IMG/VR virus record: IMGVR_UViG_3300042465_001021
Location: 1-61,316 of that record
DNA length: 61,316 bases
Source: a virus
Taxonomy: Duplodnaviria; Caudoviricetes
Strand: one strand, 5' to 3'
The translations under genes were made by a program, and so were the position numbers. Of this stretch, positions 38,088 to 50,255 are shown one piece after another (positions within the stretch are counted from its first letter, which is position 1; every line of letters starts with the position of its first letter). Under the pieces are notes generated by a model. The model did not search any database. It was not told the origin of the DNA and worked only from the letters and a program-made list of their open reading frames with translations.

Positions 38088-40628
38088 ATGGCCGTCGATA
38101 GAAGTTTGATGCAGGCTCCGATGGGTCTTGAAGCTATGGCTGCCGAGATGGAGCCGATTGAGATCGAGATCGTGGACCCAGAGGCGGTTCGCATCGGCAT
38201 CGATGGGATGGAGATTAGCCTTGAAAAAGAGGCACCCAGAGCAGAAGATTTCGACGCAAACCTTGCAGAATTTATCGATGAGCAAGAACTTCAACTCCTA
38301 GCGTCTGAACTGCTGGGAGACTACGAGCAGGATTTAAGTTCAAGAAAGGATTGGCTCGACACGTATGTAAAAGGACTAAAGATCCTCGGCATTCGCTACG
38401 AGGAAAGAACAGAGCCGTGGCCGGGTGCGTGTGGCGTGTTCCACCCGCTCTTGATGGAGTCGGCTGTTAAGTTCCAGTCCGAGACGATCATGGAGACCTT
38501 CCCAGCGATGGGTCCGGTCAAGACCAAGATTATCGGCAAGGAGACCCCGGAGAAGAAGGACTCGGCTATTCGTGTCGCTGATGACATGAACTACAAGCTG
38601 ACCGAGGAAATGAAGGAGTATCGCCCGGAGCATGAGCGTCTCCTGCTTTCGCTGGCTCTGTCGGGCAACGCATTTAAGAAGGTGTACTTTGACCCGTCAC
38701 TAAACCGTCAGACGGCTGTCTATATCCCGGCTGAAGATATCGTGGTGCCATACGGCGCTGCCAACATTGAATCGGCTGAGCGTGTTACGCACCGGATGCG
38801 TAAGACCAAGAACGAGGTCAAGAAGCTTCAGTACGCAGGGTTTTATCGTGACGTTGATCTGGGTGATCCGGTTCGCGTCATGGACGAGGTGGAGAAGCAG
38901 AAGGCAGAGGATCAAGGCTTCTCGGCAAGCATGGACGACCGGTTCCAGTTGCTTGAGATGCACGTGAACCTTGACCTGAAAGATTATCCAGACGTTGACG
39001 ATGACAATAGTGAGACGGGGATCGCACTGCCATACGTGGTGACGATTGAGAAGGGAACAGGAACAGTCCTAGCCATACGCAGGAACTGGAAAGAAGACGA
39101 TGAACTCAAAGCCAAGCGACAGCACTTTGTTCATTATGGTTACATCCCCGGCTTCGGGTTCTACTACTTTGGTCTCATCCACCTTATCGGCGGACACTCT
39201 AAGGCAGCTACATCACTTCTTCGCCAGCTTATCGACGCAGGAACACTCAGCAACCTTCCGGGTGGTCTCAAGTCGCGCGGGTTGCGAATTAAGGGAGACG
39301 ATACGCCTATTGCTCCGGGAGAATTCCGAGACGTAGACGTACCAAGTGGCGCGATCAAGGACAACATCCTCCCGCTGCCATACAAGGAACCCTCGCAGAC
39401 TCTTGCTCAGTTGATGGATCGAGTGGTCGAGGAAGGCCGCCGCTTCGCTGCTGTGTCGGATCTGAAAGTCAGCGATATGTCGTCGCAGGCTCCGGTCGGT
39501 ACGACGTTGGCTATTTTGGAGCGTGTTCTCAAGGTGATGTCGGCTGTTCAGGCTCGCATCCACTACACGATGAAGCAGGAGTTCAAGCTCCTCGCTGCGA
39601 TCATCCGAGACTATACGCCAGAGGAGTACAGCTACGAGCCAGAAGTCGGCGGTCGCAAGGCCAAGAAGTCCGACTACGACAACGTGGACATCCTCCCGGT
39701 GTCCGACCCGAACGCGGCAACCATGTCGCAGAAGGTGGTGCAGTACCAAGCTGTGCTGCAACTCTCGCAGTCGGCTCCTCAGATTTACGATTTACCCTAT
39801 CTTCATCGGCAGATGATTGAGACCTTGGGCATCAGGAATGCCAACAAGATTATCCCCGCTGCTGATGATCAAAAGCCTGTAGACCCGGTGACGGAGAACA
39901 TGAATCTCTTGAACGGCAAACCCGTCAAGGCGTTCTACTACCAAGATCACGAGGCGCATCTACAGGTTCACATGATGGCCATGCAAGATCCGAAAATCAT
40001 GCAGATTGTGGGTCAGAACCCGCAGGCTCAGTCCATCATGGCCGCTGGCGCTGCTCACATCATGGAGCACGTGGCGTTTCAGTACCGCAAGGAAATCGAG
40101 AAGCAGTTGGGAGCGAATCTCCCGCCGATGCCCGATGCGGAGAAAGACGAGAACTTCCTGCCAGAAGCAGCCGAGGTTCAGATATCTCAACTTGCCGCCG
40201 CAGCCGCTGCCAAGTTGTTGCAGAAGGATCAAGCCGAGGCCCAAGCCGCCCAAGCGCAGCAACAGGCGCAAGACCCTGTTATCCAGATGCAGCAGATGGA
40301 GCTTCAACTTCGTCAACAAGAGTTGCAGATCCAGCAGCAGAAGTTGCAGATCGATGCTCAGGTCAAAATGGCCGAGCAGCAGCGTAAAGAGAAGGAGTTG
40401 CAGATCGACGCGGCGCTCAAAGCCGATGAGATCGAACTTCGTCAGCTTGAGATATCGAACCGTCAGCAGATCGAAGCCGCCAAGATGGGCGCAGACATCC
40501 AGAAACACAAAGCTAGCTTGGCTGCGAAACAGCAGGCAGACGGAGTGCGGATGGGCATCGATATTGCCAAGGCAAAAGAATCCGCTGATCTTCAGCGTAA
40601 CCGCCCCCAAAAGGGCAAGAAGGAGTAA
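38088..40628 (+). CDS. portal protein (P22-like, long coiled-coil C-terminus)
   Basis: 846 aa after terL; PWPGACGVFHPLL, GNAFKKVYFD, APGEFRDVD, Gln-rich barrel-like tail. Confidence 0.85.
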   Translation: MAVDRSLMQAPMGLEAMAAEMEPIEIEIVDPEAVRIGIDGMEISLEKEAPRAEDFDANLAEFIDEQELQLLASELLGDYEQDLSSRKDWLDTYVKGLKILGIRYEERTEPWPGACGVFHPLLMESAVKFQSETIMETFPAMGPVKTKIIGKETPEKKDSAIRVADDMNYKLTEEMKEYRPEHERLLLSLALSGNAFKKVYFDPSLNRQTAVYIPAEDIVVPYGAANIESAERVTHRMRKTKNEVKKLQYAGFYRDVDLGDPVRVMDEVEKQKAEDQGFSASMDDRFQLLEMHVNLDLKDYPDVDDDNSETGIALPYVVTIEKGTGTVLAIRRNWKEDDELKAKRQHFVHYGYIPGFGFYYFGLIHLIGGHSKAATSLLRQLIDAGTLSNLPGGLKSRGLRIKGDDTPIAPGEFRDVDVPSGAIKDNILPLPYKEPSQTLAQLMDRVVEEGRRFAAVSDLKVSDMSSQAPVGTTLAILERVLKVMSAVQARIHYTMKQEFKLLAAIIRDYTPEEYSYEPEVGGRKAKKSDYDNVDILPVSDPNAATMSQKVVQYQAVLQLSQSAPQIYDLPYLHRQMIETLGIRNANKIIPAADDQKPVDPVTENMNLLNGKPVKAFYYQDHEAHLQVHMMAMQDPKIMQIVGQNPQAQSIMAAGAAHIMEHVAFQYRKEIEKQLGANLPPMPDAEKDENFLPEAAEVQISQLAAAAAAKLLQKDQAEAQAAQAQQQAQDPVIQMQQMELQLRQQELQIQQQKLQIDAQVKMAEQQRKEKELQIDAALKADEIELRQLEISNRQQIEAAKMGADIQKHKASLAAKQQADGVRMGIDIAKAKESADLQRNRPQKGKKE

Positions 40629-40826
40629 ATGAGTTATACGACAGCACTCGACTACCTCAAATCAAAACTTGAGGACGAGCGTTCCAACATCGTGTCTTTT
40701 CTGTCTCAAGGCACTTTGAAGGACATCGAAGAGTATCGAAGATTGTGCGGCATCATCCAAGGTCTTGATGCAGCCAAAGTTTTGATTTCAGACCTTGAAA
40801 AACGGATGGAGACAGACGATGAGTAA
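40629..40826 (+). CDS. small conserved head-module protein
   Basis: EEYRRLCGIIQGL motif between portal and the GroES-like gene. Confidence 0.65.
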   Translation: MSYTTALDYLKSKLEDERSNIVSFLSQGTLKDIEEYRRLCGIIQGLDAAKVLISDLEKRMETDDE

Positions 40827-41196
40827 TATTGATATTGAGAAAACACAGGAAGAGGCCAAGAAAGCCTCGTTGCTCCCAGCGCCGAGAGGGTATCGGTTGC
40901 TGTGCGCGGTTCCTCATGTAGAAGAGGAATTTGAAGGCGGCATCGTCAAGGCCGAGGACACCAAGCGTACGGAGGAACTGACTACGGTCGTTCTCTTTGT
41001 CGTGAAGGTGGGTGACATGGCCTACAAGGATAAGGATCGGTTTCCGACTGGTCCGTGGTGCAAGGAAGGGGACTTTGTTCTGACCCGTCCGTACGCAGGC
41101 ACCCGCGTGGTCATTCATGGCCGCGAGTTCCGAATCATCAACGACGACAGTGTGGAAGCGGTGGTCGATGACCCCCGTGGTATCCGCCGCGCATAA
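40819..41196 (+). CDS. groES: GroES/Cpn10-like co-chaperonin
   Basis: PRGYRLL, mobile loop EGGIVK, VVKVG, KEGDFVL..YAGT....GREFRIINDDSVEAVV. Confidence 0.8.
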   Translation: MSNIDIEKTQEEAKKASLLPAPRGYRLLCAVPHVEEEFEGGIVKAEDTKRTEELTTVVLFVVKVGDMAYKDKDRFPTGPWCKEGDFVLTRPYAGTRVVIHGREFRIINDDSVEAVVDDPRGIRRA

Positions 41197-41206
41197 GGAG
41201 TAAATC

Positions 41207-42181
41207 ATGGCAGATCTTGAAGAATACAAATTCCCCGACGAAGTAGAGGCTGAAAACAAAGCCAAAGACACGGCGGGTGAAGACGATTTCAGTATTGAAA
41301 TTGTGGACGATATGCCTCCAGAGGATCGGCAGCATTCTCGCCCGATGCCCGAGGAAATCGTTAAGAAGCTGGAAAAGGACGAGTTGGATGAGTATTCCGA
41401 CGACGTAAAAGAACGCTTCCGCCAGATGAAAAAGGTCTGGAATGACGAGCGTCGTGCCAAGGAATCAGCAGCCCGTGAGCGTGAGGAAGCCCTCAAGTTC
41501 GCTCAATCTCAGATGGAAGAGAACAAGCGTCTCAAGCAGCGCCTTGGCGTTGGTGAGCGAGTCTTTATCCAAGAGGTCACTAAGGCTGCAAACAACGAGC
41601 TTTTGACCGCTAAAGAAAAGCTAAAGCAAGCTTACGAATCAGGCGATGCCGAAAACATTGCTCTGGCTCAAGAGGCGATGACTGACGCGAAGCTTAAACT
41701 GAAACAGTACGAAGGCTTCCGTCCCTCTTTACAATCAGAAGAGGAAAGTGTACAACCGCCTCAACAGGTAACGACGCCACAAGCGCCTGCTCCAGCAATC
41801 GACCCAAAAGCCGATGCTTGGAAACGGAACAACACTTGGTTCGGCGTGGACGAGGAGATGACCGCCCTCGCACTCGGCCTGCACGAAAAACTGGTCAGGT
41901 CTGGAGTCGATCCGCGTAGTGACGAGTACTACCAAAAGATCGATGCAACGATGAGGAAGCGGTTTCCTGAGACGTTCGACGACGTTGAAGAAGCCAAACC
42001 TCAAAAGGAAGAACCCAAACCTTCTTCTAAGTCAAAGCCATCCACAAACGTGGCCCCTGTAACGCGGGGAACCGCACCTCGTCAAATTCGTTTGACGGCT
42101 ACGCAAGTTGCTCTGGCTAAAAAACTTGGCTTGAGTAATGAACAGTACGCACGTGAATTGATGAAACTGGAGGCTAACTAA
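41207..42181 (+). CDS. capsid scaffolding protein
   Basis: Acidic coiled coil, C-terminal LTATQVALAKKLGLSNEQYA helix. Confidence 0.7.
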   Translation: MADLEEYKFPDEVEAENKAKDTAGEDDFSIEIVDDMPPEDRQHSRPMPEEIVKKLEKDELDEYSDDVKERFRQMKKVWNDERRAKESAAREREEALKFAQSQMEENKRLKQRLGVGERVFIQEVTKAANNELLTAKEKLKQAYESGDAENIALAQEAMTDAKLKLKQYEGFRPSLQSEEESVQPPQQVTTPQAPAPAIDPKADAWKRNNTWFGVDEEMTALALGLHEKLVRSGVDPRSDEYYQKIDATMRKRFPETFDDVEEAKPQKEEPKPSSKSKPSTNVAPVTRGTAPRQIRLTATQVALAKKLGLSNEQYARELMKLEAN

Positions 42182-42182
42182 A

Positions 42183-42632
42183 ATGGCTGAGAATCGTTTG
42201 CAACGAGAAGTTGAGAGTAGAGACGCCGCGCAGCGAAAGATGTCGTGGGCACCGCCCCAAACGCTCCCCGAACCGGAGCCGCAGGAAGGTTGGGTGTTCC
42301 GCTGGATTCGGACCAGTATTATGGGTCAAGCAGATCCCTCTAATACGTCTGCAAAGTTTCGGGAAGGCTGGGAGCCTGTGAAGGCTTCTGAACAACCCAA
42401 GCTGATGATGCAAGCTGATCCCAATGGACGTTTTAAAGACAACATTGAGATTGGTGGGTTGTTGCTCTGCAAGGCTCCAAAGGAGTTGATGGACCAGCGT
42501 GATAGCTATTACGCGAAACAGGCCCAAGCTCAGTTGCAGTCAGTGGACAACAACTTTATGAGGCTGAACGACGAACGTATGCCCCTCTTCACTGAGAAGA
42601 AAACTACGGTCTCGTTTGGCAAGGGTAAATAA
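42183..42632 (+). CDS. conserved head-module protein
   Basis: FRWIR...REGWEPV...GGLLLCK. Confidence 0.65.
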   Translation: MAENRLQREVESRDAAQRKMSWAPPQTLPEPEPQEGWVFRWIRTSIMGQADPSNTSAKFREGWEPVKASEQPKLMMQADPNGRFKDNIEIGGLLLCKAPKELMDQRDSYYAKQAQAQLQSVDNNFMRLNDERMPLFTEKKTTVSFGKGK

Positions 42633-42650
42633 CTTATTTTGGAGTAACAA

Positions 42651-43310
42651 ATGGCTTATCCTACCGTTGACAAGCCTTATGGCTTGAAGCCGATCAACTT
42701 GATCGGTGGGCAGGTGTTTGCCGGTGCAACTCGTCAGCGTCGTATCGCTTCTGGTGCTGCTAGCATCGGTTACGGTGACCCGCTGCAATTTGCTTCGGAC
42801 GGCACTGTTGAAGTAACGACCTCGACGACGACGGCCCCTGTCGCTGGCTTTGCTGGCGTGTTCTTGGGCTGTAACTTCGTATCCTCTGTGACGGGTCAGC
42901 CGACCTACTCGCAGTCTTGGATTTCGGGTACTGCGGTCAAGGCTGGTACGTACATTGTTGCGTACGTGGTTGACGACCCGGACACTCTGTTCAAGGCTGT
43001 TGGTGTGACGGCTTCGCTGGTGGTTTCGACCACGGGCGGTTTCGAGTACACGAGCATTGGTTTGAACGTGGCTCTCGTGGCGAACACGCTGAACACGACG
43101 ACGAACGATTCGCAACAGGGTCTGTTGGTTGGCTCGGCTGCCACTACTCGTGCGTTGCCGATGCGTATCATCGACGTTGTTGAAGACACGGCGTTCGTGT
43201 CGAGCGGTACCGTTTACTACCCTGAAGTTATCGTCAAGTTTAACGCTCCGTACGTAACTTCTGGCGTGGTTGAGGGCGGTCACGCTTACAACAACCCGCT
43301 GGGTATTTAA
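42651..43310 (+). CDS. probable capsid decoration protein
   Basis: Beta-rich Thr/Ala/Gly/Val protein just before the MCP; GVFLGC, DDPD motifs. Confidence 0.6.
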   Translation: MAYPTVDKPYGLKPINLIGGQVFAGATRQRRIASGAASIGYGDPLQFASDGTVEVTTSTTTAPVAGFAGVFLGCNFVSSVTGQPTYSQSWISGTAVKAGTYIVAYVVDDPDTLFKAVGVTASLVVSTTGGFEYTSIGLNVALVANTLNTTTNDSQQGLLVGSAATTRALPMRIIDVVEDTAFVSSGTVYYPEVIVKFNAPYVTSGVVEGGHAYNNPLGI

Positions 43311-43325
43311 TAGGAGTTCTGAAAA

Positions 43326-44234
43326 ATGGCTATTTCACGTGCACAATTACTCAAAGAACTCCTTCCGGGTTTGAACGCCCTGTTTGGTCTTGAGTACAAG
43401 TCCTATGGTGAGGAGCACAAGGAGATCTACGATACCGAGACCTCCGAGCGTTCCTTTGAAGAAGAGACGAAGCTGAGCGGATTCTCCGCTGCCCCCGTGA
43501 AGAACGAGGGTCAGGCCATTGCGTACGACAACGCGCAGGAAGCTTGGACGGCTCGTTACAACCACGAGACGATTGCTCTCGGCTTCTCCATCACGGAAGA
43601 GGCGGTTGAGGACAACCTGTACGACTCGCTCAGCAAGCGTTATACAAAGGCTCTTGCTCGCGCTATGGCGTACACGAAGCAGGTCAAGGCGGCGTCGGTT
43701 CTGAACAATGGCTTCTCTTCGTCCTACGTGGGCGGTGACGGCCAGCCGTTGTTCTCGGCCTCGCATCCGCTTGTTTCGGGTGGCACCAACAGCAACCGTT
43801 TGACGGCCTCGGATCTCAACGAAACTTCGTTGGAAGCTGCGGTTATTCAGATTGCTGGTTGGACCGACGAACGTGGTCTCTTGATCGCGGCGAAGCCCAA
43901 CAAGCTCATCGTGCCCCCGTCATTGATGTTCACTGCCAAGCGACTCCTCGATACGGAACTCCGTGTTGCGACCGCTGACAACGACATCAACGCGTTAAAG
44001 GCGATGGGTTCGATTCCGGGCGGTTACACCGTGAACCACTTCTTGACCGACACGAATGCTTGGTTCTTGACGACCGACGTTCCGAACGGCATGAAGCACT
44101 TCGTTCGTACCCCGCTGCAAAACAGCATGGATGGCGATTTCGACACCGGCAACGTCCGGTACAAGAGCCGCGAGCGTTATAGCTTCGGCTGGTCGGACCC
44201 GCTGGGCATGTTCGCTTCGCCGGGCGCGTCCTGA
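43326..44234 (+). CDS. major capsid protein
   Basis: MAISRAQLLKELLPGLNALFG...GDFDTGNVRYKSRERYSFGWSDP; strong RBS; terminator downstream. Confidence 0.9.
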   Translation: MAISRAQLLKELLPGLNALFGLEYKSYGEEHKEIYDTETSERSFEEETKLSGFSAAPVKNEGQAIAYDNAQEAWTARYNHETIALGFSITEEAVEDNLYDSLSKRYTKALARAMAYTKQVKAASVLNNGFSSSYVGGDGQPLFSASHPLVSGGTNSNRLTASDLNETSLEAAVIQIAGWTDERGLLIAAKPNKLIVPPSLMFTAKRLLDTELRVATADNDINALKAMGSIPGGYTVNHFLTDTNAWFLTTDVPNGMKHFVRTPLQNSMDGDFDTGNVRYKSRERYSFGWSDPLGMFASPGAS

Positions 44235-44260
44235 GTTTGATTGAGTCCTAGAGAGATTGG

Positions 44261-44298
44261 GGGGTTACAAGTAGAAATGCTTGTAGCCCCTCTTTTTT
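44261..44298 (+). terminator. Rho-independent terminator after MCP
   Basis: GGGGTTACAAGTA-GAAA-TGCTTGTAGCCCC then TCTTTTTT. Confidence 0.85.
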
Positions 44299-44309
44299 AG
44301 TGATATACA

Positions 44310-44397
44310 GTCGTTATCGGGAAAAAACCGTTTACCAGACAGCCCCGACTGACGACATGCAGACTGGTAAACATTTACTCGCATGTGAGGAATTGAA
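44310..44397 (+). ncRNA. candidate structured cis-regulatory RNA (double pseudoknot) in the 5' leader
   Basis: 9-bp stem GTTTACCAG/CTGGTAAAC; its loop pairs with upstream TCGGG and with downstream GCATGT next to the RBS; promoter TTGTAG-N17-TATACA with extended TG upstream. Confidence 0.55.
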
Positions 44398-44616
44398 ATG
44401 GCACGTACTACGTTTTCGGGTCCGGTTAAGTCGGACAATGGCTTTGAGGGCGATATCGTTGGTGGTGTTGTATCCGCTTCGACCCTTGTGATCGGTACGA
44501 CGACTGTCACTGCTGGTGTCGCCACGGGTTCGGTTTCGGCTCAAGCCGGTTATATCCCGGTCAAAATTGGATCGACCGTTAAGTACATCGCGCTGTATTC
44601 CAGCCTGACTCCGTAA
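44398..44616 (+). CDS. small structural protein (possible head fibre/decoration)
   Basis: MARTTFSGPVKSDNGF N-terminus; followed by a GGGGGC-GCAA-GCCCCC hairpin at 44627-44642. Confidence 0.7.
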   Translation: MARTTFSGPVKSDNGFEGDIVGGVVSASTLVIGTTTVTAGVATGSVSAQAGYIPVKIGSTVKYIALYSSLTP

Positions 44617-44665
44617 GATTTCGTAGGGGGGCGCAAGCCCCCTTCATCCATTACAGGAGATCCAG

Positions 44666-44971
44666 ATGGGTATGCAAACAGATGTCTTAGCCAGTCAACC
44701 CCGTACTGATGCGGGGCAACTGCTGGACCAGAATAGCCTTGTTATTGGCCGTTCGCGTGTGAAAGCGATTTACATCATCCCGACCTCTTCGGCTGGTCAA
44801 GTCGTGTTCCGCGATGGCGGATCGGGCGGTCCGGTCAAGATCACCGTGAACACCCTTGCTAGTTCCAGCGCACCGGATTACGTCCTGCTGCCGGGTGAAG
44901 GTCTTCTCTTCCAAGAGAACGTCTACATTGCCCCGTCAGCCGTAGTCTCGACGATGGTGATCTATGGCTAA
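44666..44971 (+). CDS. structural protein (beta-rich)
   Basis: MQTDV...RVKAIY...PGEGLLF...VIYG. Confidence 0.65.
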   Translation: MGMQTDVLASQPRTDAGQLLDQNSLVIGRSRVKAIYIIPTSSAGQVVFRDGGSGGPVKITVNTLASSSAPDYVLLPGEGLLFQENVYIAPSAVVSTMVIYG

Positions 44972-45218
44972 GTCTCCGGCTTGGCAGCGCAAGGAAGGGA
45001 AGAACCCGAAGGGCGGCTTGAATGCCAAAGGTCGGGCTTCTTACAACCGAGCTAATCCCGGTAAACCCGGCCTGAAGGCACCGCAGCCTGAAGGCGGACC
45101 TCGTAAGAAATCATTCTGTGCGAGGATGTCGGGAATGAAGAAAAAGCTGACAAGCGCGAAGACGGCCAATGATCCCAACAGTCGTATCAACAAGTCCCTC
45201 AGAGCATGGAACTGCTGA
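44964..45218 (+). CDS. small basic protein (DUF6321-like)
   Basis: AWQRKEGKNPKGGLNAKGRAS...RKKSFCARM...SRINKSLRAWNC. Confidence 0.7.
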   Translation: MAKSPAWQRKEGKNPKGGLNAKGRASYNRANPGKPGLKAPQPEGGPRKKSFCARMSGMKKKLTSAKTANDPNSRINKSLRAWNC

Positions 45219-45219
45219 T

Positions 45220-45456
45220 ATGGAGATGGTCGTCTGGAACATGGTTCTTACGGGAATCGTGGCCATTTTGGGCTTTATCTTGAAAGAGAAGTTTGAAGAA
45301 CTCAAACGACTTGGCATCCTGCTCAACAGGACACGCGAAGAAGTAGCCCGTGACCACGTGACTCGTGCAGAAGTACGAGCAGATAACGAACAACTTTTGG
45401 CCCGACTTGACCGGTTGGAACAGAAAATTGACAGGCTGGTAGAAAATGCCAAGTAA
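45220..45456 (+). CDS. single-TM coiled-coil protein
   Basis: N-terminal hydrophobic helix, then LLNRTREEVAR...RLDRLEQKID. Confidence 0.6.
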   Translation: MEMVVWNMVLTGIVAILGFILKEKFEELKRLGILLNRTREEVARDHVTRAEVRADNEQLLARLDRLEQKIDRLVENAK

Positions 45457-45589
45457 ATCTGGCAAGCAACATCGTTTAATGGCCTTGGTTGCGAATGACC
45501 CGAAAGCAGCCAAACGTCTTGGAGTCCCCCAAAAGGTTGGGAAGGAATTCATGAAGGCTGACAAGGGTCGCAAGTTCAAGAGGAAATAA
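45446..45589 (+). CDS. small basic peptide (47 aa, not in ORF track)
   Basis: MPSKSGKQHRLMALVANDPKAAKRLGVPQKVGKEFMKADKGRKFKRK*. Confidence 0.65.
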   Translation: MPSKSGKQHRLMALVANDPKAAKRLGVPQKVGKEFMKADKGRKFKRK

Positions 45590-45591
45590 TC

Positions 45592-45807
45592 ATGGGAATG
45601 TCTCGTAAAGCGATTGATATGGCGAAAGCTGGCCGTGCTATGAAGCAGCCGACTCCTGACATGATGGGTCGTGCTATGGCTCCCGGCATGAAGAAGGGCG
45701 GCAAGGTAAAGTCTGGAAGCTCAGCCTCCAAGCGTGCTGACGGCGTTGCTCACAAGGGCAAGACCAAGGGCAAGATGGTCAAGATGGCTTACGGCGGTAA
45801 GTGCTAA
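45592..45807 (+). CDS. small basic peptide with MKKGG / SASKRADG motif
   Basis: 71 aa; MKKGG...SASKRADGVAHKGKTKGKMV..MAYGG. Confidence 0.7.
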   Translation: MGMSRKAIDMAKAGRAMKQPTPDMMGRAMAPGMKKGGKVKSGSSASKRADGVAHKGKTKGKMVKMAYGGKC

Positions 45808-46034
45808 TGAGCAGCAAGAACAAACCCAAGATGCCCCCTCCGTCCCCTTCGGACGACTTGATCCCTCCGTCGATGCTTCCGGATAAGCCGGGAATTCCTC
45901 CGGGCAAAGGCTACGGCGACGACATCAAAAAGAAGCCCCCAGTGAAAAAGGCTGGCGGGGGTTCAATCGGCTCTGCTTCCAAGCGTGCTGATGGTTGCGC
46001 TATTCGCGGTAAAACCCGAGGGAAGTTTGTATGA
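45807..46034 (+). CDS. small Pro/Lys-rich peptide with SASKRADG motif
   Basis: KAGGGSIGSASKRADGCAIRGKTRGKFV C-terminus. Confidence 0.65.
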   Translation: MSSKNKPKMPPPSPSDDLIPPSMLPDKPGIPPGKGYGDDIKKKPPVKKAGGGSIGSASKRADGCAIRGKTRGKFV

Positions 46035-46621
46035 AAGGCTTCGGCAGTCGTGGCTACGGCGCTAAAAAGCGTATGCGTAAGTTTGAAGAGGGCGGCCCGA
46101 CTGATTATGCAGAGTCGGGAAGTGCTGGTAGCACCAACATCAGCTTCGGTGAGGCATTCAAGGCCGCACGTAAGCAGGGTCTGAAGACCTTTACTTGGCG
46201 TGGCAAGGAATACACCACTGAGACCAAGGAAGATAAGGCCAAGAAGTCACTTGACGAAGTGGAAGTTAAGAGCAAGCGTCCTGACTTCAAGGAAATCTAC
46301 GAGCGCGATACGGTGACGGATAAGGCTGGCATGGGTCAGCGCGGTTCGTCTATTCGTGGCGGTAAGCGCAACATGACCGTTGATCAGAAGATTGGCGAGT
46401 CGATCCGCGCTTCTACGAAAAGCATGAAGAACACTGATAGTGCTTATGAGCGCCTTGCTGCTACGGCTGGTTCACGTAAGCAGGAATCAGAGCGCAAAGC
46501 CAAGCGTGTCAACGAAGCCCGTGAGTCTATGAGCTACCGTAAAGGTGGTTCGGTTGGTTCGGCTTCCAAACGTGCTGACGGCATTGCTGTTCGTGGCAAG
46601 ACAAAGGGACGGATGGTCTGA
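46031..46621 (+). CDS. basic protein with SFGEAFKAARK domain and SASKRADG motif
   Basis: FEEGG; SFGEAFKAARKQGLKTFTWRGKEYTT; YRKGGSVGSASKRADGIAVRGKTKGRMV. Confidence 0.7.
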   Translation: MKGFGSRGYGAKKRMRKFEEGGPTDYAESGSAGSTNISFGEAFKAARKQGLKTFTWRGKEYTTETKEDKAKKSLDEVEVKSKRPDFKEIYERDTVTDKAGMGQRGSSIRGGKRNMTVDQKIGESIRASTKSMKNTDSAYERLAATAGSRKQESERKAKRVNEARESMSYRKGGSVGSASKRADGIAVRGKTKGRMV

Positions 46622-46917
46622 TGATGCCCTCCCGAGGCATGGGTGATATCAACCCCAAGAAGGTGCCGCGAGCAAAGCGGCGCGGGGATGACAAGCCTGT
46701 GATCGGGACGGGCAAGCCCATTCGTACTTTCAAGAAGGGCGGCGAGAGCAAGGTCAACGCAGCTGGTAACTATTCCAAGCCCGGTATGCGTAAAGCATTG
46801 TTCAACAGCATCAAGAATAGTGCGGTTCAAGGCACTGCGGCAGGTCAGTGGTCGGCTCGTAAGGCGCAGTTGTTGGCTAAGCGGTATAAGGAAAAAGGCG
46901 GCGGATATACGTCATGA
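46621..46917 (+). CDS. basic protein; C-terminus resembles the N-half of DUF5872-like proteins
   Basis: FKKGG; NYSKPGMRK...GQWSARKAQLLAKRYKEKGGGY. Confidence 0.65.
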   Translation: MMPSRGMGDINPKKVPRAKRRGDDKPVIGTGKPIRTFKKGGESKVNAAGNYSKPGMRKALFNSIKNSAVQGTAAGQWSARKAQLLAKRYKEKGGGYTS

Positions 46918-47159
46918 AAGCCCCGCAGCAATCCTTGAAGGCATGGACTGCCCAGAAATGGAGAACTAAAAGTGGTAAACGATCTTCTGACACGGGTGAA
47001 AGGTATTTACCAGAGGCTGCTATTAAAGCTCTCAGCCCCGCTGAATACGCCCGAACCACTGCCGCCAAGCGCCGAGGAAAAGCCCAAGGCAAGCAGTTCG
47101 TCGCGCAGCCCAAAGGCATCTCGCAGAAAACCCGTGCGTATCGTCAAAGGGGCAAGTAA
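46914..47159 (+). CDS. basic protein resembling the C-half of DUF5872-like proteins
   Basis: QQSLKAWTAQKWRTKSG...ERYLPEAAIKALSPAEY...KQFVAQP. Confidence 0.65.
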   Translation: MKAPQQSLKAWTAQKWRTKSGKRSSDTGERYLPEAAIKALSPAEYARTTAAKRRGKAQGKQFVAQPKGISQKTRAYRQRGK

Positions 47160-47162
47160 GAA

Positions 47163-47420
47163 GTGAACATGCAGAAGATTGTGGATATGTTGTTTCCGGT
47201 GCTTCTGGCCGCTGTGGGCTGGTTGTTGGCGGAGATCGCATCATTCAACAATCGTCTGATTGCTATCGAGTCTAAAATCCCCATTCTCATTACCGAAGAT
47301 GGGGTACCTACCGATAGTCCTTTGAGCGCCGCCCGTCGTCAGGAACTTAAAGACGACATTATGGAAGACATCCACGACCTGCAAGTGCGGGTCAAGTTGA
47401 TGGAAGAACGAGGCAAGTAA
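47163..47420 (+). CDS. single-TM coiled-coil protein
   Basis: LFPVLLAAVGWLLAEI hydrophobic helix. Confidence 0.6.
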   Translation: MNMQKIVDMLFPVLLAAVGWLLAEIASFNNRLIAIESKIPILITEDGVPTDSPLSAARRQELKDDIMEDIHDLQVRVKLMEERGK

Positions 47421-48145
47421 TGGTAGACAAGACTACAGCTACTACAGACTTTAACCTCGACCTCAATACGATTATTGAGGAAGCCTTTGAGCGTTGCGGG
47501 GCTGAACTGCGTTCGGGATACGACTTCCGTACGGCCAAGCGTAGTCTGTCGTTGCTCCTGATGGACTGGGCTAACCGGGGCATTAACCTCTGGACGCTAG
47601 AGCAGGGTACGCACACTCTGACCTACAATGTCGGCACGTATGATCTGCCAGTGGATACGGTTGACCTGCTTGACCATGTGATCCGGACTGGCTCTGGCAC
47701 AAACCAGCAGGACATCAACATCAGCCGTATCTCGTCCAGCACTTACGTGTCGATCCCGAACAAGAACGCGACGGGTCGCCCGATTCAGATCTGGATCAAT
47801 CGGCGTACGGGTGCTACGGGCGCTGATAACGTCATTGTCTACCCGCAGTTCACGGTATGGCCAAAGCCTGATAACAGCACGACTTGGGTTCTGTACTACA
47901 CCCGCCTGCGTCGTATGTTTGATGTGGGTAACGGCGTCAACGGACAGGATATCCCGTTCCGGTTTTTGCCCTGCATGGTTGCTGGGCTGGCTTACATGCT
48001 GTCAATGAAGATTCCAAACGCTGATGCGCGTACTCCTATGTTGAAGGCCCAGTACGACGAAGCTTGGGATCTAGCGGCAGGCGAAGACCGCGAAAAAGCG
48101 GCGGTGCGGTTTGTCCCACGTGAGAGCTTCTTGGGTGGCTACTAA
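47420..48145 (+). CDS. head-tail adaptor / tail tubular protein A-like
   Basis: IIEEAFERCG...WANRGINLW...PNKNATGRP...WPKPD...LKAQYDEAW. Confidence 0.7.
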   Translation: MVDKTTATTDFNLDLNTIIEEAFERCGAELRSGYDFRTAKRSLSLLLMDWANRGINLWTLEQGTHTLTYNVGTYDLPVDTVDLLDHVIRTGSGTNQQDINISRISSSTYVSIPNKNATGRPIQIWINRRTGATGADNVIVYPQFTVWPKPDNSTTWVLYYTRLRRMFDVGNGVNGQDIPFRFLPCMVAGLAYMLSMKIPNADARTPMLKAQYDEAWDLAAGEDREKAAVRFVPRESFLGGY

Positions 48146-48522
48146 TGCCAAACAGGTTTGCAAGTGGCAAGAACGCAATCGCCATGTGCGACCGGTGCGG
48201 ATTTCAGTACAAACTGCGCCAGTTGAAGTCGATTGTGATCAAGACCAAGAACGTAAATATCTTGGTCTGTCCAGAGTGTTGGGAACCCGATCAGCCTCAG
48301 TTGTCGCTTGGTTTGTACCCAGTGGACGATCCGCAGGCACTTCGGAACCCAAGACCGGATACGAGTTATTTTGCGGTCGGTAATGACGGCGCTAATGGCA
48401 GTCGTCAGATACAATGGGGTTGGAACCCGGTCGGTGGGTCAAGAGCCTTCGATGCGGAGCTAACTCCGAACACACTGGCCCCGGCTGGTGAAGTAGGAAC
48501 GGTGACGGTCGTTACGACCTAG
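48145..48522 (+). CDS. Zn-binding virion-associated protein
   Basis: CDRCG...CPECWEPDQPQL...DPQALRNPRPD. Confidence 0.65.
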   Translation: MPNRFASGKNAIAMCDRCGFQYKLRQLKSIVIKTKNVNILVCPECWEPDQPQLSLGLYPVDDPQALRNPRPDTSYFAVGNDGANGSRQIQWGWNPVGGSRAFDAELTPNTLAPAGEVGTVTVVTT

Positions 48523-48531
48523 GAGATTGAG

Positions 48532-48714
48532 ATGGCGATGAGCAAACTTGAGAAACATGCGGCTCTTCCGGCGAGCAAGGCTCACGGTCCGGGTCGAGTG
48601 AAAAATATGCGTGCTGGTGGCAAGACCAACAGCGAGATGAAGAAGTACGGGCGCAACATGGCTAAGGTCATGAATCAGCGTAGCCCGGTTCGTAAGTCTT
48701 CTGGCCCGAAGTAA
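48532..48714 (+). CDS. small basic peptide with MRAGG motif
   Basis: AGGAG RBS; MRAGGKTNSEMKKYGRNMAKV. Confidence 0.65.
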   Translation: MAMSKLEKHAALPASKAHGPGRVKNMRAGGKTNSEMKKYGRNMAKVMNQRSPVRKSSGPK

Positions 48715-48719
48715 TTGCC

Positions 48720-48917
48720 ATGAAAGAATTAAATCCCGGCAAGATCAAGCCGAACACAGACTCGACGGGGCGTAATGGCTACCCGGAGAAGGATGTGAAC
48801 AAGGGTGTCACCCACATGGATATGAAGGGTGCTGGCGCTGCGACGAAGGGCAAGAAGTTCGTGTCGCAGATCAACCTTGAGAACAACGCCAAGTACAGGT
48901 CAGGCTGGTCGCCGTGA
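48720..48917 (+). CDS. small basic peptide
   Basis: MKGAGAATKGKKF motif. Confidence 0.6.
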   Translation: MKELNPGKIKPNTDSTGRNGYPEKDVNKGVTHMDMKGAGAATKGKKFVSQINLENNAKYRSGWSP

Positions 48918-49555
48918 ATTACACGCAGCTTTCTACACTGATTCAGCAATATTGTGAGTCTACGGAAACCTCTTTCGTAGCGAATATTCCTACGTTCGTG
49001 CAGTTAGCTGAAGAGCGGATTTATAACTCCGTTCAGATCCCGGCAATCCGTAAGAACTCGACTGCCACGATGTCGATTGGGAACAAGTACATGTCCCTGC
49101 CGTCTGACTGGCTCTCGACGTTCTCCTTGGCTGTATTTAACCCGGCAAATAATGAGTACACGTACCTGTTGAATAAGGATGTGAACTATATTCGTCAGGC
49201 GTACCCAGATGCGGACGATACCGGGTTGCCCAAGTACTATGCAATTTGGGATGACAACACGATGATTCTTGGCCCTGCGCCAGATCTCGCGTACACAGCC
49301 GAGTTGCATTATTACTATTACCCGGCTTCGATTGTGGACGTTGGTACGTCTTGGCTCGGTACTAACTTTGAAACTGTTCTGCTCTACGGTGCAATCCGTG
49401 AAGGTTATATCTACCTCAAGGGTGAACAAGACATGATGCAGTACTACGAGCAGAAGTATCAGGAAGCCTTACAACAGTTGATGAGACTGGGTGATGGCTT
49501 GAACCGTCAGGATGCGTATCGTTCGGGTCAGGTTAGAATTCCGGTGGCTTCGTGA
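48914..49555 (+). CDS. second adaptor / tail tubular A-like protein
   Basis: MNYTQL...FVQLAEERI...GLPKYYA...LGPAPD...LLYGAI. Confidence 0.7.
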   Translation: MNYTQLSTLIQQYCESTETSFVANIPTFVQLAEERIYNSVQIPAIRKNSTATMSIGNKYMSLPSDWLSTFSLAVFNPANNEYTYLLNKDVNYIRQAYPDADDTGLPKYYAIWDDNTMILGPAPDLAYTAELHYYYYPASIVDVGTSWLGTNFETVLLYGAIREGYIYLKGEQDMMQYYEQKYQEALQQLMRLGDGLNRQDAYRSGQVRIPVAS

Positions 49556-49800
49556 TGTTTAGCGCAGAAGTTCAAATTGGGCAGGTGCTTGTTCAGACAA
49601 CAGACCACCGTGGGCATACCGTAGAAGAGATTGCGGAGCGTGCGGCTAACCGCATTATTCGCGCAGATACGAAGGAAGCCCTGCATTATTGGCTGGTAAA
49701 ATATCTCACCGAAGCGCAAAAAGCTGAACGTGAGTCGATATGTAAGAAGTTAGATAAACAGGGCTATGCGGAAATCGCACACTTAATTGGAGACCTATAA
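49552..49800 (+). CDS. hypothetical protein
   Basis: VQTTDHRGHTVEEIAE motif; coupled ORF. Confidence 0.6.
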   Translation: MMFSAEVQIGQVLVQTTDHRGHTVEEIAERAANRIIRADTKEALHYWLVKYLTEAQKAERESICKKLDKQGYAEIAHLIGDL

Positions 49801-50255
49801 TGGCTATTTCTCAGGCAATGGTGACTTCGTTCAAGGTGGAAATCCTTGATGGGGTACACAACTTTGGTGTTGGCGTTGTTCGCGCTTCAACGGCTGCGGA
49901 TGTATTCAAGCTGGCGCTGTATACCTCGTCGGCAACTCTTGGCGCTGCAACCACGGCGTATACGACTTCGGATGAGGTTTCCTCGTCTGGAACGAATTAC
50001 CCGGCTGGCGGCTTGACGCTGACGATCTCGCAGGTTCCGACCTCGACGGGTACGACGGCGTTCTTGGACTTTGATGACCTGACGTTCCCCAGTGCTACCC
50101 TGACGGCTAACGGTGCGTTGATCTACAACGAAACCCAAAGCAACAAGGCTGTGGCGGTGCTGGCGTTCGGTGGAGATAAAACCTCTACCGCTGGTAACTT
50201 CACGATTCAGTTCCCTGCCGCTGCCGCTTCGACTGCGATCCTGCGTATTGCTTAA
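49800..50255 (+). CDS. tail-associated structural protein
   Basis: MAISQAMVTSFKVEIL...FKLALYTS...GALIYN...FGGDKTST.GNFTIQFP. Confidence 0.7.
   Translation: MAISQAMVTSFKVEILDGVHNFGVGVVRASTAADVFKLALYTSSATLGAATTAYTTSDEVSSSGTNYPAGGLTLTISQVPTSTGTTAFLDFDDLTFPSATLTANGALIYNETQSNKAVAVLAFGGDKTSTAGNFTIQFPAAAASTAILRIA

Follow-up and report, generated by a model that had tools for sequence, protein, structure and literature searches.

The window analysed here, the complete 61,316-base virus record IMGVR_UViG_3300042465_001021 of IMG/VR (CheckV completeness 97%), carries a compact double-pseudoknot RNA leader in front of a small gene whose product resembles capsid cement or decoration proteins. The leader comprises about 75 nucleotides (nt), about 52 of them paired, and spans about 44316-44391 on the + strand. 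A preliminary description of the window had proposed three helices for it (P1, P2 and P3). Comparison with related phages bore these out and revealed two further helices of 3 base pairs (bp), Px and Py, as well as an overlap of the fold with the Shine-Dalgarno (SD) sequence, all of which go beyond that description. The alignments show that the five predicted helices P1, P2, P3, Px and Py are conserved and covary. Our tentative reading, to which we give a probability of roughly 0.45, is that the leader acts in cis as a 5' RNA which would gate the access of ribosomes and cap the 5' end of the mRNA.

Architecture and covariation of the leader

From its 5' end the element runs through the 5' arm of P1 as a 5' tail, a linker of 5-9 nt, the 5' arm of P2, an A, Px with the 3' arm of P1 in its loop, AC(G), the 5' arm of P3, (A)GA, the 3' arm of P2, a linker of 3-13 nt and Py with the 3' arm of P3 as its loop, after which the SD follows. 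In the window (all positions on the + strand) the 5' arm of P1, TCGGG at 44317-44321 and thus at or adjoining the inferred RNA 5' end, forms 5 bp with CCCGA at 44344-44348. P2 joins GTTTACCAG (44330-44338) to CTGGTAAAC (44364-44372) by 9 bp, and an unpaired A at 44339, present in 59 of the 67 rows of the fitted alignment described below, connects it to the mini-hairpin Px (44340-44351). There CAG (44340-44342) pairs with CTG (44349-44351) around a 6-nt loop (44343-44348), the last five bases of which are the 3' arm of P1. The junction ACG (44352-44354; A in 67/67, C in 62/67 and G in 48/67 rows) leads to the 5' arm of P3, ACATGC at 44355-44360, which is part of the internal loop on the 3' side of the P2-Px stem and forms 6 bp with GCATGT at 44381-44386, and a second junction, AGA at 44361-44363 (A in 52/67, G in 61/67 and A in 65/67 rows), leads back into P2. 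Py (44378-44389), the second mini-hairpin, pairs CTC (44378-44380) with GAG (44387-44389); its 6-nt loop is the 3' arm of P3 and its 3' strand supplies the first three bases of the SD GAGGA (44387-44391). Conservation of these unpaired junction bases suggests that the RNA adopts a particular tertiary structure or offers a surface for binding. The positions that the preliminary description had assigned to TTGTAG, TATACA, the arms of P1, P2 and P3, GAGGA and the pair GTCGTTA (44310-44316) and TGACGAC (44350-44356) were all exact.

Folding of the single sequence did not stand out. The 100-nt leader alone reaches -20.4 kcal/mol (z = -1.02, with 34 of 200 shuffles equally stable), and the z of -3.3 obtained for a longer stretch stems from the upstream terminator, so that the case rests on the relatives. 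The minimum-energy fold of the 100-nt leader uses an alternative helix available to read-through transcripts and not the pseudoknot, and that of 44316-44391, the RNA started at the putative promoter, includes P2 and Py. A permissive a-b-a'-c-b'-c' descriptor was dropped as a statistic, as chance solutions scoring 17-26 occurred in nearly every 300-nt flank; its best solution in the window (24) was spurious and lay within a coding region.

A capsid-protein scan of IMG/VR returned at least 600 stretches, the best 80 loci of which (85-100% capsid identity) were used. Our alignment made without a structural model (MAFFT) holds 61 sequences and leaves out L003 (identical to the window and replaced by it), L006 (the same as L005), L041 and L068 (both truncated where their contigs stop) and three matches with E > 0.01. 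Across P1, P2 and P3, 80.5% of its cells pair, against 26-42% for slid partners, the covariation amounts to 0.498 against at most 0.165, and changes on both sides are seen in 18 of 20 pairs; 500 shuffles never attained this level of pairing or of covariation. All three helices of the proposed double pseudoknot are therefore kept in homologous loci through compensatory changes, which is the check that the preliminary description had named. When given the MAFFT alignment, RNAalifold arrived at Px and P3 independently.

A covariance model built on P2 and Px (R1) gave a fitted alignment of 67 distinct rows, which is biased towards these two helices; here 87.7% of cells are paired against at most 43.2%, with a covariation of 0.652 against at most 0.123. 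P2 has 95-96% of its cells paired and all 9 pairs have changed on both sides. Px is paired in 100% of cells, its middle pair being A-U in 29, U-A in 29 and C-G in 9 rows and its inner pair G-C in 59, C-G in 5, A-U in 2 and U-A in 1. It occurs as CAG/CTG, CTG/CAG, CCG/CGG, CCA/TGG, CTC/GAG and CCCT/AGGG and additionally as CGG/CCG, CCC/GGG, CTAG/CTAG and CCAG/CTGG. Within P2 and Px, 33 G.U pairs face only 3 A.C mismatches, an imbalance which indicates that the pairing works on the transcript of the + strand and neither on its complement nor in a symmetric DNA site.

For P3, both-side changes are found in all 6 pairs. The fixed-column pairing of P1 and P3 (72-85%) is understated by register shifts of 1-2 nt between sequence classes, and as a second model built on P1 and P3 (R2) failed to re-register the classes, both helices were judged by a position-free test. 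The first cross-sequence control of this test was confounded by helix types shared between sequences and was replaced by a control across types, with 14 arm types for P1 and 21 for P3. The exact 5-bp Watson-Crick complement of a sequence's own P1 3' arm is present in its 5' tail in 61/67 cases, compared with 112/3690 cross-type combinations. Exact pairing of P3 with its own 3' arm was found in 62/67 cases, where the own arm had been chosen as the best duplex and only the cross-type figure, 13/3830, is informative. In 118 distinct copies of class i the inner pair of Py is C-G in 64, T-A in 49, T.G in 4, A-G in 1 and C-A in 0, its middle pair is T-A in all 118 and its outer pair C-G in 107.

In two loci (L051:3998-4084 and L075:4000-4086) P1 contains a mismatch in its interior (CTAGGG vs GCCCAG) and looks intermediate between the CTAGG/CCTAG and CTGGG/CCCAG types. 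We also noted that in the CCGGG, TCGGG, CCAGG and CTCGG classes (window 44318-44330; L025, L056 and L040 types) the P1-P2 linker contains 3-5 nt complementary to the 5' arm of P1, and the resulting hairpin could compete with P1 and the outer pairs of P2. The CTAGG and CTGGG classes lack this hairpin, which is therefore not a conserved switch. The alternative helix that the preliminary description had offered for read-through transcripts, GTCGTTA with TGACGAC, did not hold up either: GTCGT stands upstream of P1 in 4 of 130 distinct instances that carry ...ACGAC, and these are confined to the nearest relatives of the window.

Distribution, transcript start and ribosome-binding site

An nhmmer profile found a single copy in each of 68/83 sequences, model R1 one match per source in 70/82 sources and model R2 one match per locus in 74/82 sources, without exception on the + strand, and R1 has exactly one match in the 61-kb phage record (75.6 bits). 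A 16-nt core pattern has at least 120 matches in IMG/VR, and all 79 loci tested among them are model matches with E < 1e-14. A second capsid-based scan, from which 45 of 80 loci were picked by eye as contigs not previously seen, added 38 model matches in these 45 and brought further helix variants. In prokaryotic genomes (596 Gb) the core pattern has at least 120 matches as well, about the chance expectation by a rough estimate; 4 of the 80 tested are model matches (L146, L162, L095 and L101), all on contigs of metagenome-assembled genomes (MAGs), one of which (58 kb) is probably a binned phage, and no host could be assigned from these 80. Of the nearest named relatives, Phage DSL-LC04 has one copy, and none was found under R1 or R2 in Planktothrix phage Pag-Yong1 (73% capsid identity).

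The 79 IMG/VR pattern loci and the 4 MAG contigs, all of them model matches, make up 83 copies, and the open reading frames (ORFs) of 57-236 amino acids (aa) which follow them share the start M-x-x-[ST]-[ST]-[FYH]-x-G-P in 79 cases. In loci with genes inserted after the capsid gene, the leader and its own promoter are found downstream of the insert, adjoining the cement-like ORF. The element thus belongs to the downstream gene and not to the terminator, and its description as a feature following the capsid terminator holds for the window but not for such loci. The leader occurs on one strand only, once per genome, at a fixed position next to the SD and linked to one gene family; covariation, restriction to the sense strand and a fixed place before one gene family together are what characterises a generic structured cis-regulatory 5' leader.

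The capsid terminator that had been proposed upstream is real. It lies at 44259-44298 (+), a stem-loop at 44259-44292 of 15 pairs (7 of them G-C) with a loop of 4, followed by a T-run, and a G+C-rich hairpin with T-run after the capsid gene is also present in those relatives whose flanks were displayed. The putative promoter at 44281-44309 (+) overlaps it, with the -35-like TTGTAG (44281-44286) in the 3' arm of the terminator, a 17-nt spacer, TG at 44301-44302 and the -10 box TATACA at 44304-44309. Such an overlap, as the preliminary description had suggested it, is plausible, since relatives keep a -10-like box and many have a TTG at 17 nt. Of 66 distinct upstream regions, 58 contain the box; it ends 8-9 nt before P1 in 36 of these 58, which suggests that the RNA starts at the fold. 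The transcript would probably begin 0-3 nt before P1, in the window near A44316, a position deduced from the box and not mapped. A -35 box agreeing with TTGACA at 5 or more of 6 positions is present in 13 regions, mainly at copies which do not directly follow a terminator; at copies which do, a TTG in the hairpin loop or 3' arm is often found 17 nt upstream of the -10. TTGTAG in the window agrees at 3/6 positions only, and the promoter is here carried by its extended -10.

At its other end the fold meets the ribosome-binding site. In the sequences displayed the SD directly follows the 3' arm of P3 or overlaps the fold, except in class iii. In classes i and ii its first three bases form Py, and as the purine of the inner Py pair is the first SD base, the exchange between C-G and T-A (64/49, with no C-A) maintains a pair with the SD. 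In several other classes the 5' arm of P3 has a CCTC or CTTC that pairs with the SD GAGG itself, as in L020, L054, L049, L077, L080, L328, L036, L073, L370, L335, L369 and L393, so that the SD is located within P3, for instance as TTGAGG or GCATGAGG. In class iii (TAGTAG/CTACTA, with GTG/CAC as Py) it lies 2-3 nt beyond Py.

Proposed mechanism and competing explanations

The preliminary description had assigned the leader to no named family, and a search of Rfam 15 agrees with this. At E up to 10, the region 43900-44800 of the window gave 4 weak matches, none near its threshold; the sole one on the leader, mir-456, is on the minus strand (14.1 bits vs a threshold of 58). No match was obtained at gathering thresholds in 20 relatives (116 kb). 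Under these same conditions the ribozyme models twister, pistol and hatchet and the preQ1-II and SAM-II aptamer models did not match. The earlier wording 'riboswitch-like, protein-binding or catalytic', which names three options, is too broad. Downstream of the leader, a sub-threshold match to Mu-gpT-DE, in Rfam an RNA downstream of the major head gene of Mu, covers the last part of the cement gene together with the gap behind it (44603-44668, +); it is probably due to chance (15.7 bits vs a gathering threshold of 49, E = 1.2).

Word searches of the literature found no description of the element, the candidate lists of the following catalogue being outside their scope. Fremin et al. 2023 (PMC10690425) report 8495 unnamed structured-RNA candidates from intergenic regions of IMG/VR, conserved covarying structures at most 25 nt upstream of phage genes, five of which precede a major capsid protein family. 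The leader may already be among these anonymous candidates. Since the pipeline of that study reports nested structures, the pseudoknots would probably be new even then.

In the reading that we favour, P2 would stack under Px, the 5' tail would pair with the Px loop to give P1 and the 6-nt stretch of the internal loop would pair with the Py loop to give P3, with the conserved bases A44339, A44352-C44353 and G44362-A44363 lining the junction of P2, Px and P3. A single tertiary unit of this kind would tie together both ends of the leader, as P1 would hold the 5' end of the transcript and Py (or P3) the first bases of the SD. The folded state would partly mask the ribosome-binding site and shield the 5' end from 5'-end-dependent decay, and the 30S subunit would have to open Py or P3 in order to initiate, so that the stability of the fold would set the output of cement protein. 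A trans-acting partner would probably tune this stability, our first guess being a phage head protein acting in feedback. The simultaneous formation of all helices, the effect on translation and decay and the binding partner are what we infer from the comparative data.

Several observations speak against such a gate. From covariation one cannot tell whether Px and P1, or Py and P3, coexist or alternate, and each of the two combinations requires an almost fully paired 6-nt loop closed by only 3 bp; hairpin loops of 6 nt that are fully paired do occur in kissing complexes. Masking of the SD is not universal, because in class iii the SD lies outside the fold, and with 3 bp in Py any masking may be weak; both call for caution. 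The N-terminus of the cement-like protein differs between subfamilies (MGFATHLGPW, MALSTTQSIW) with an unchanged RNA core, which weakens the cement protein itself as the partner. A strict sigma-70 scan of 40000-50000 found no promoter, and on this count the promoter proposed for the window fails. Finally, small shares of the window recur as contigs in four metatranscriptome runs, where stretches without cover carry no meaning, and one RNA-library contig of 238 nt (100% identical) spans 44158-44395 with the capsid gene end, the terminator and the leader. It crosses the terminator and shows that read-through transcripts or DNA carry-over exist; such contigs indicate presence only and nothing on starts, ends, strand or level.

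The chief competitor, which we consider unlikely but worth serious attention, takes the leader for an unregulated element that constitutively stabilises the 5' end or enhances translation, in which a robust 5' fold blocks RNases that depend on the 5' end, the SD simply lies at its 3' edge and a high yield of a stoichiometric capsid protein results. The ompA leader is an example of how 5'-terminal hairpins stabilise bacterial mRNAs, and a transcript start inferred at 0-3 nt before P1, a product annotated as capsid cement protein that should be needed in about the amounts of the capsid protein, and the free SD of class iii would all agree with such a function. Yet a simple hairpin would suffice for it, whereas the leader has five covarying helices and near-invariant unpaired junction bases, and pairing of the first SD base, or of GAGG itself in other classes, is maintained by selection, which one would not expect of a pure enhancer. 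Together with the conserved junction bases, this SD pairing argues for more than a plain stabilising hairpin.

Rather improbable in our view, despite good precedents, is a protein-binding translational operator, in which a head protein, either free cement protein or for instance the highly conserved major capsid protein, would bind the junction, thereby lock Py and P3 and repress translation in autogenous feedback until capsids absorb the free protein. The compact fold, the conserved junction purines and the SD overlap would suit an operator, the RNA is linked to a gene with a conserved N-terminal arm (79/83), and the capsid protein is 85-100% identical across the loci carrying the RNA. Autoregulation is known for the P22 scaffolding protein and for the ribosomal proteins S4 and S15. 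The leaders of the Escherichia coli alpha operon (S4) and rpsO (S15) are multi-helix pseudoknots including the ribosome-binding region, where folding and the bound protein trap or block the 30S subunit. These folds reach the start codon or the first codons and precede ribosomal protein genes, whereas the phage leader stops at the SD, would form the start of its transcript and is followed by a capsid gene. A search of the 72-aa protein against Pfam and PDB gave no match, and no RNA-binding domain is detectable in it; moreover its N-terminus varies by subfamily and the RNA core does not. The pseudoknot of T4 gene 32 is a further precedent, mentioned by Fremin et al. 2023 (PMC10690425). It resembles the leader in being a phage 5' leader pseudoknot near the mRNA 5' end that controls the translation of an abundant phage protein, but it is a single H-type pseudoknot with a long unstructured stretch along which gp32 spreads to the ribosome-binding site. 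Our leader has five helices, no spacer before the SD, a direct SD overlap, no sequence relation to it and an unrelated downstream gene, cement-like and not single-stranded DNA-binding, and an operator of the gene 32 type was rejected.

We regard it as a long shot that the leader founds a new aptamer class, its three-way junction binding a small molecule, an ion or the surface of the assembling capsid and thereby switching Py and P3, which would mask the SD. Close to this stands the alternative of a bacterial counterpart of the nuclease-resistant RNA folds (xrRNAs) of flaviviruses, which are compact folds of 70-80 nt whose 5' segment and 3' tail are pseudoknotted to a three-way junction and a hairpin loop. 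As these folds are generally described, the roles are mirrored in the leader, where the apical loop takes up the 5' tail, and a junction strand the loop of the 3' hairpin; in addition the leader has no Rfam match, is bacterial and is located at a putative transcription start.

For a riboswitch, a ribozyme or a polymerase-modifying RNA there is no positive support. A riboswitch whose junction pocket is stabilised by a small molecule or ion, strengthening P3 and Py over the SD, is very improbable. Its topology would resemble the pseudoknot riboswitches preQ1-II and SAM-II that sequester the SD, in which the SD is part of the pseudoknot's 3' strand or adjoins it and unpaired bases are conserved in a compact junction, and the leader shares conserved unpaired junction bases and a 3' edge overlapping the SD. 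In the leader this trait varies from a 3-nt overlap with Py (classes i and ii) through a location within P3 (some classes) to one outside the fold (class iii), the topology is that of two docked 6-nt hairpin loops, and the controlled gene encodes a structural capsid protein without metabolic context or logic. No riboswitch model of Rfam matched in the searches above, and the local alternative hairpin is missing from the CTAGG and CTGGG classes.

A self-cleaving ribozyme or processing element separating the cement mRNA from read-through capsid transcripts hardly deserves credence: such ribozymes are common in phage intergenic regions, the CUGACGA of class i resembles the hammerhead core CUGANGA and the RNA-library contig does cross the terminator, but the motif is limited to class i, other classes having CAGACG, CAGACU or CAGAUG and thus lacking a U that is invariant in the hammerhead core, a stem II followed by GAAA is missing, none of the ribozyme models of Rfam, the hammerhead included, gave a match in the searches above, and a promoter at the 5' edge makes 5' processing unnecessary. 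Equally implausible is an RNA acting on the polymerase like put of HK022 for read-through of late-operon terminators, which would fit the place directly downstream of a promoter and ahead of a long run of structural genes on the same strand, but put RNA consists of two plain stem-loops, its role needs no abutment to the SD, which the copies nevertheless show, and a terminator scan of the + strand from 40000 to 50000 found besides the capsid terminator only two weak sites, both upstream within earlier genes.

Neighbouring genes and significance

Much of the 61,316-base stretch is present in lake-water metagenome runs, and blastn with the capsid gene gave DSL-LC04 and Pag-Yong1 as the nearest named relatives (65-70% identity). 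The major capsid protein gene (43326-44234, +) belongs to phrog_371. The cement- or decoration-protein-like ORF (44398-44616, +; 72 aa, MARTTFSGPV...) has a conserved N-terminus and a variable remainder; it matches phrog_36974 (E = 1.8e-6), and its counterparts are annotated as 'cement protein' in DSL-LC04 and as 'minor capsid protein' in Pag-Yong1. Among the relatives such ORFs are constant only over the first 10-20 residues (M-A-x-T-T-F-S-G-P-V-x-S-x-N-G-F) and vary in sequence and length thereafter, so that promoter, leader and N-terminal arm look like one conserved module before a variable C-terminal part.

In many relatives an additional gene separates the capsid terminator from the leader promoter (L009:2225-2812, L012:4041-5003, L008:2520-3167 and similar loci). 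Pfam confirmed GIY-YIG and NUMOD3 in the inserted genes of L009 and L012, and the gene of the L008 type appears HNH-like by eye (DH...N...N), with no Pfam match at E up to 0.01. The intergenic spot between capsid gene and leader therefore appears to be an insertion hot spot for homing endonucleases. The otherwise unrelated inserted ORFs of L008 (3131-3167) and L012 (4967-5003) have the common ending ...ESSGKIR[LI]PDSPD*. Both reading frames cross the leader's first half, presumably the promoter as well, and stop at the TGA within the conserved CTGAC after Px; since these ends overlap the leader, the shared tail is translated leader sequence and not protein homology.

Further downstream in the window, three consecutive small basic ORFs (45592-45807, 45801-46034 and 46031-46621) have near-identical endings of about 20 aa, [GS]SASKRADG-x-A-x-[KR]GKT[KR]G[KR]-x-V. 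A Pfam search with two of them gave no match, and the ending may serve internal virion proteins as a common C-terminal signal. An ORF of 84 aa (44964-45218) matches only the C-terminal part, about 80 residues, of several much longer PHROG families (positions 849-928 of the 928 of phrog_3477, E = 2.6e-40) and appears, judged by these matches, to represent a widespread C-terminal domain that occurs here on its own.

In summary, the leader represents a well-supported RNA family without an Rfam match that is abundant in lake phages (at least 120 stretches by core pattern and at least 600 by capsid protein). Its architecture is unusual, as two 3-bp hairpins would dock their 6-nt loops on distal strands and so join the 5' end of the mRNA to the ribosome-binding site. 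If translation is gated in this way, the leader would show how a phage matches its decoration protein to capsid production, and together with its sigma-70-type promoter and an ordinary SD it would constitute a small portable module for 5' control. Should instead the junction prove to be an aptamer, lake phages would time the synthesis of their cement protein through an RNA sensor, which would then belong to a new class.

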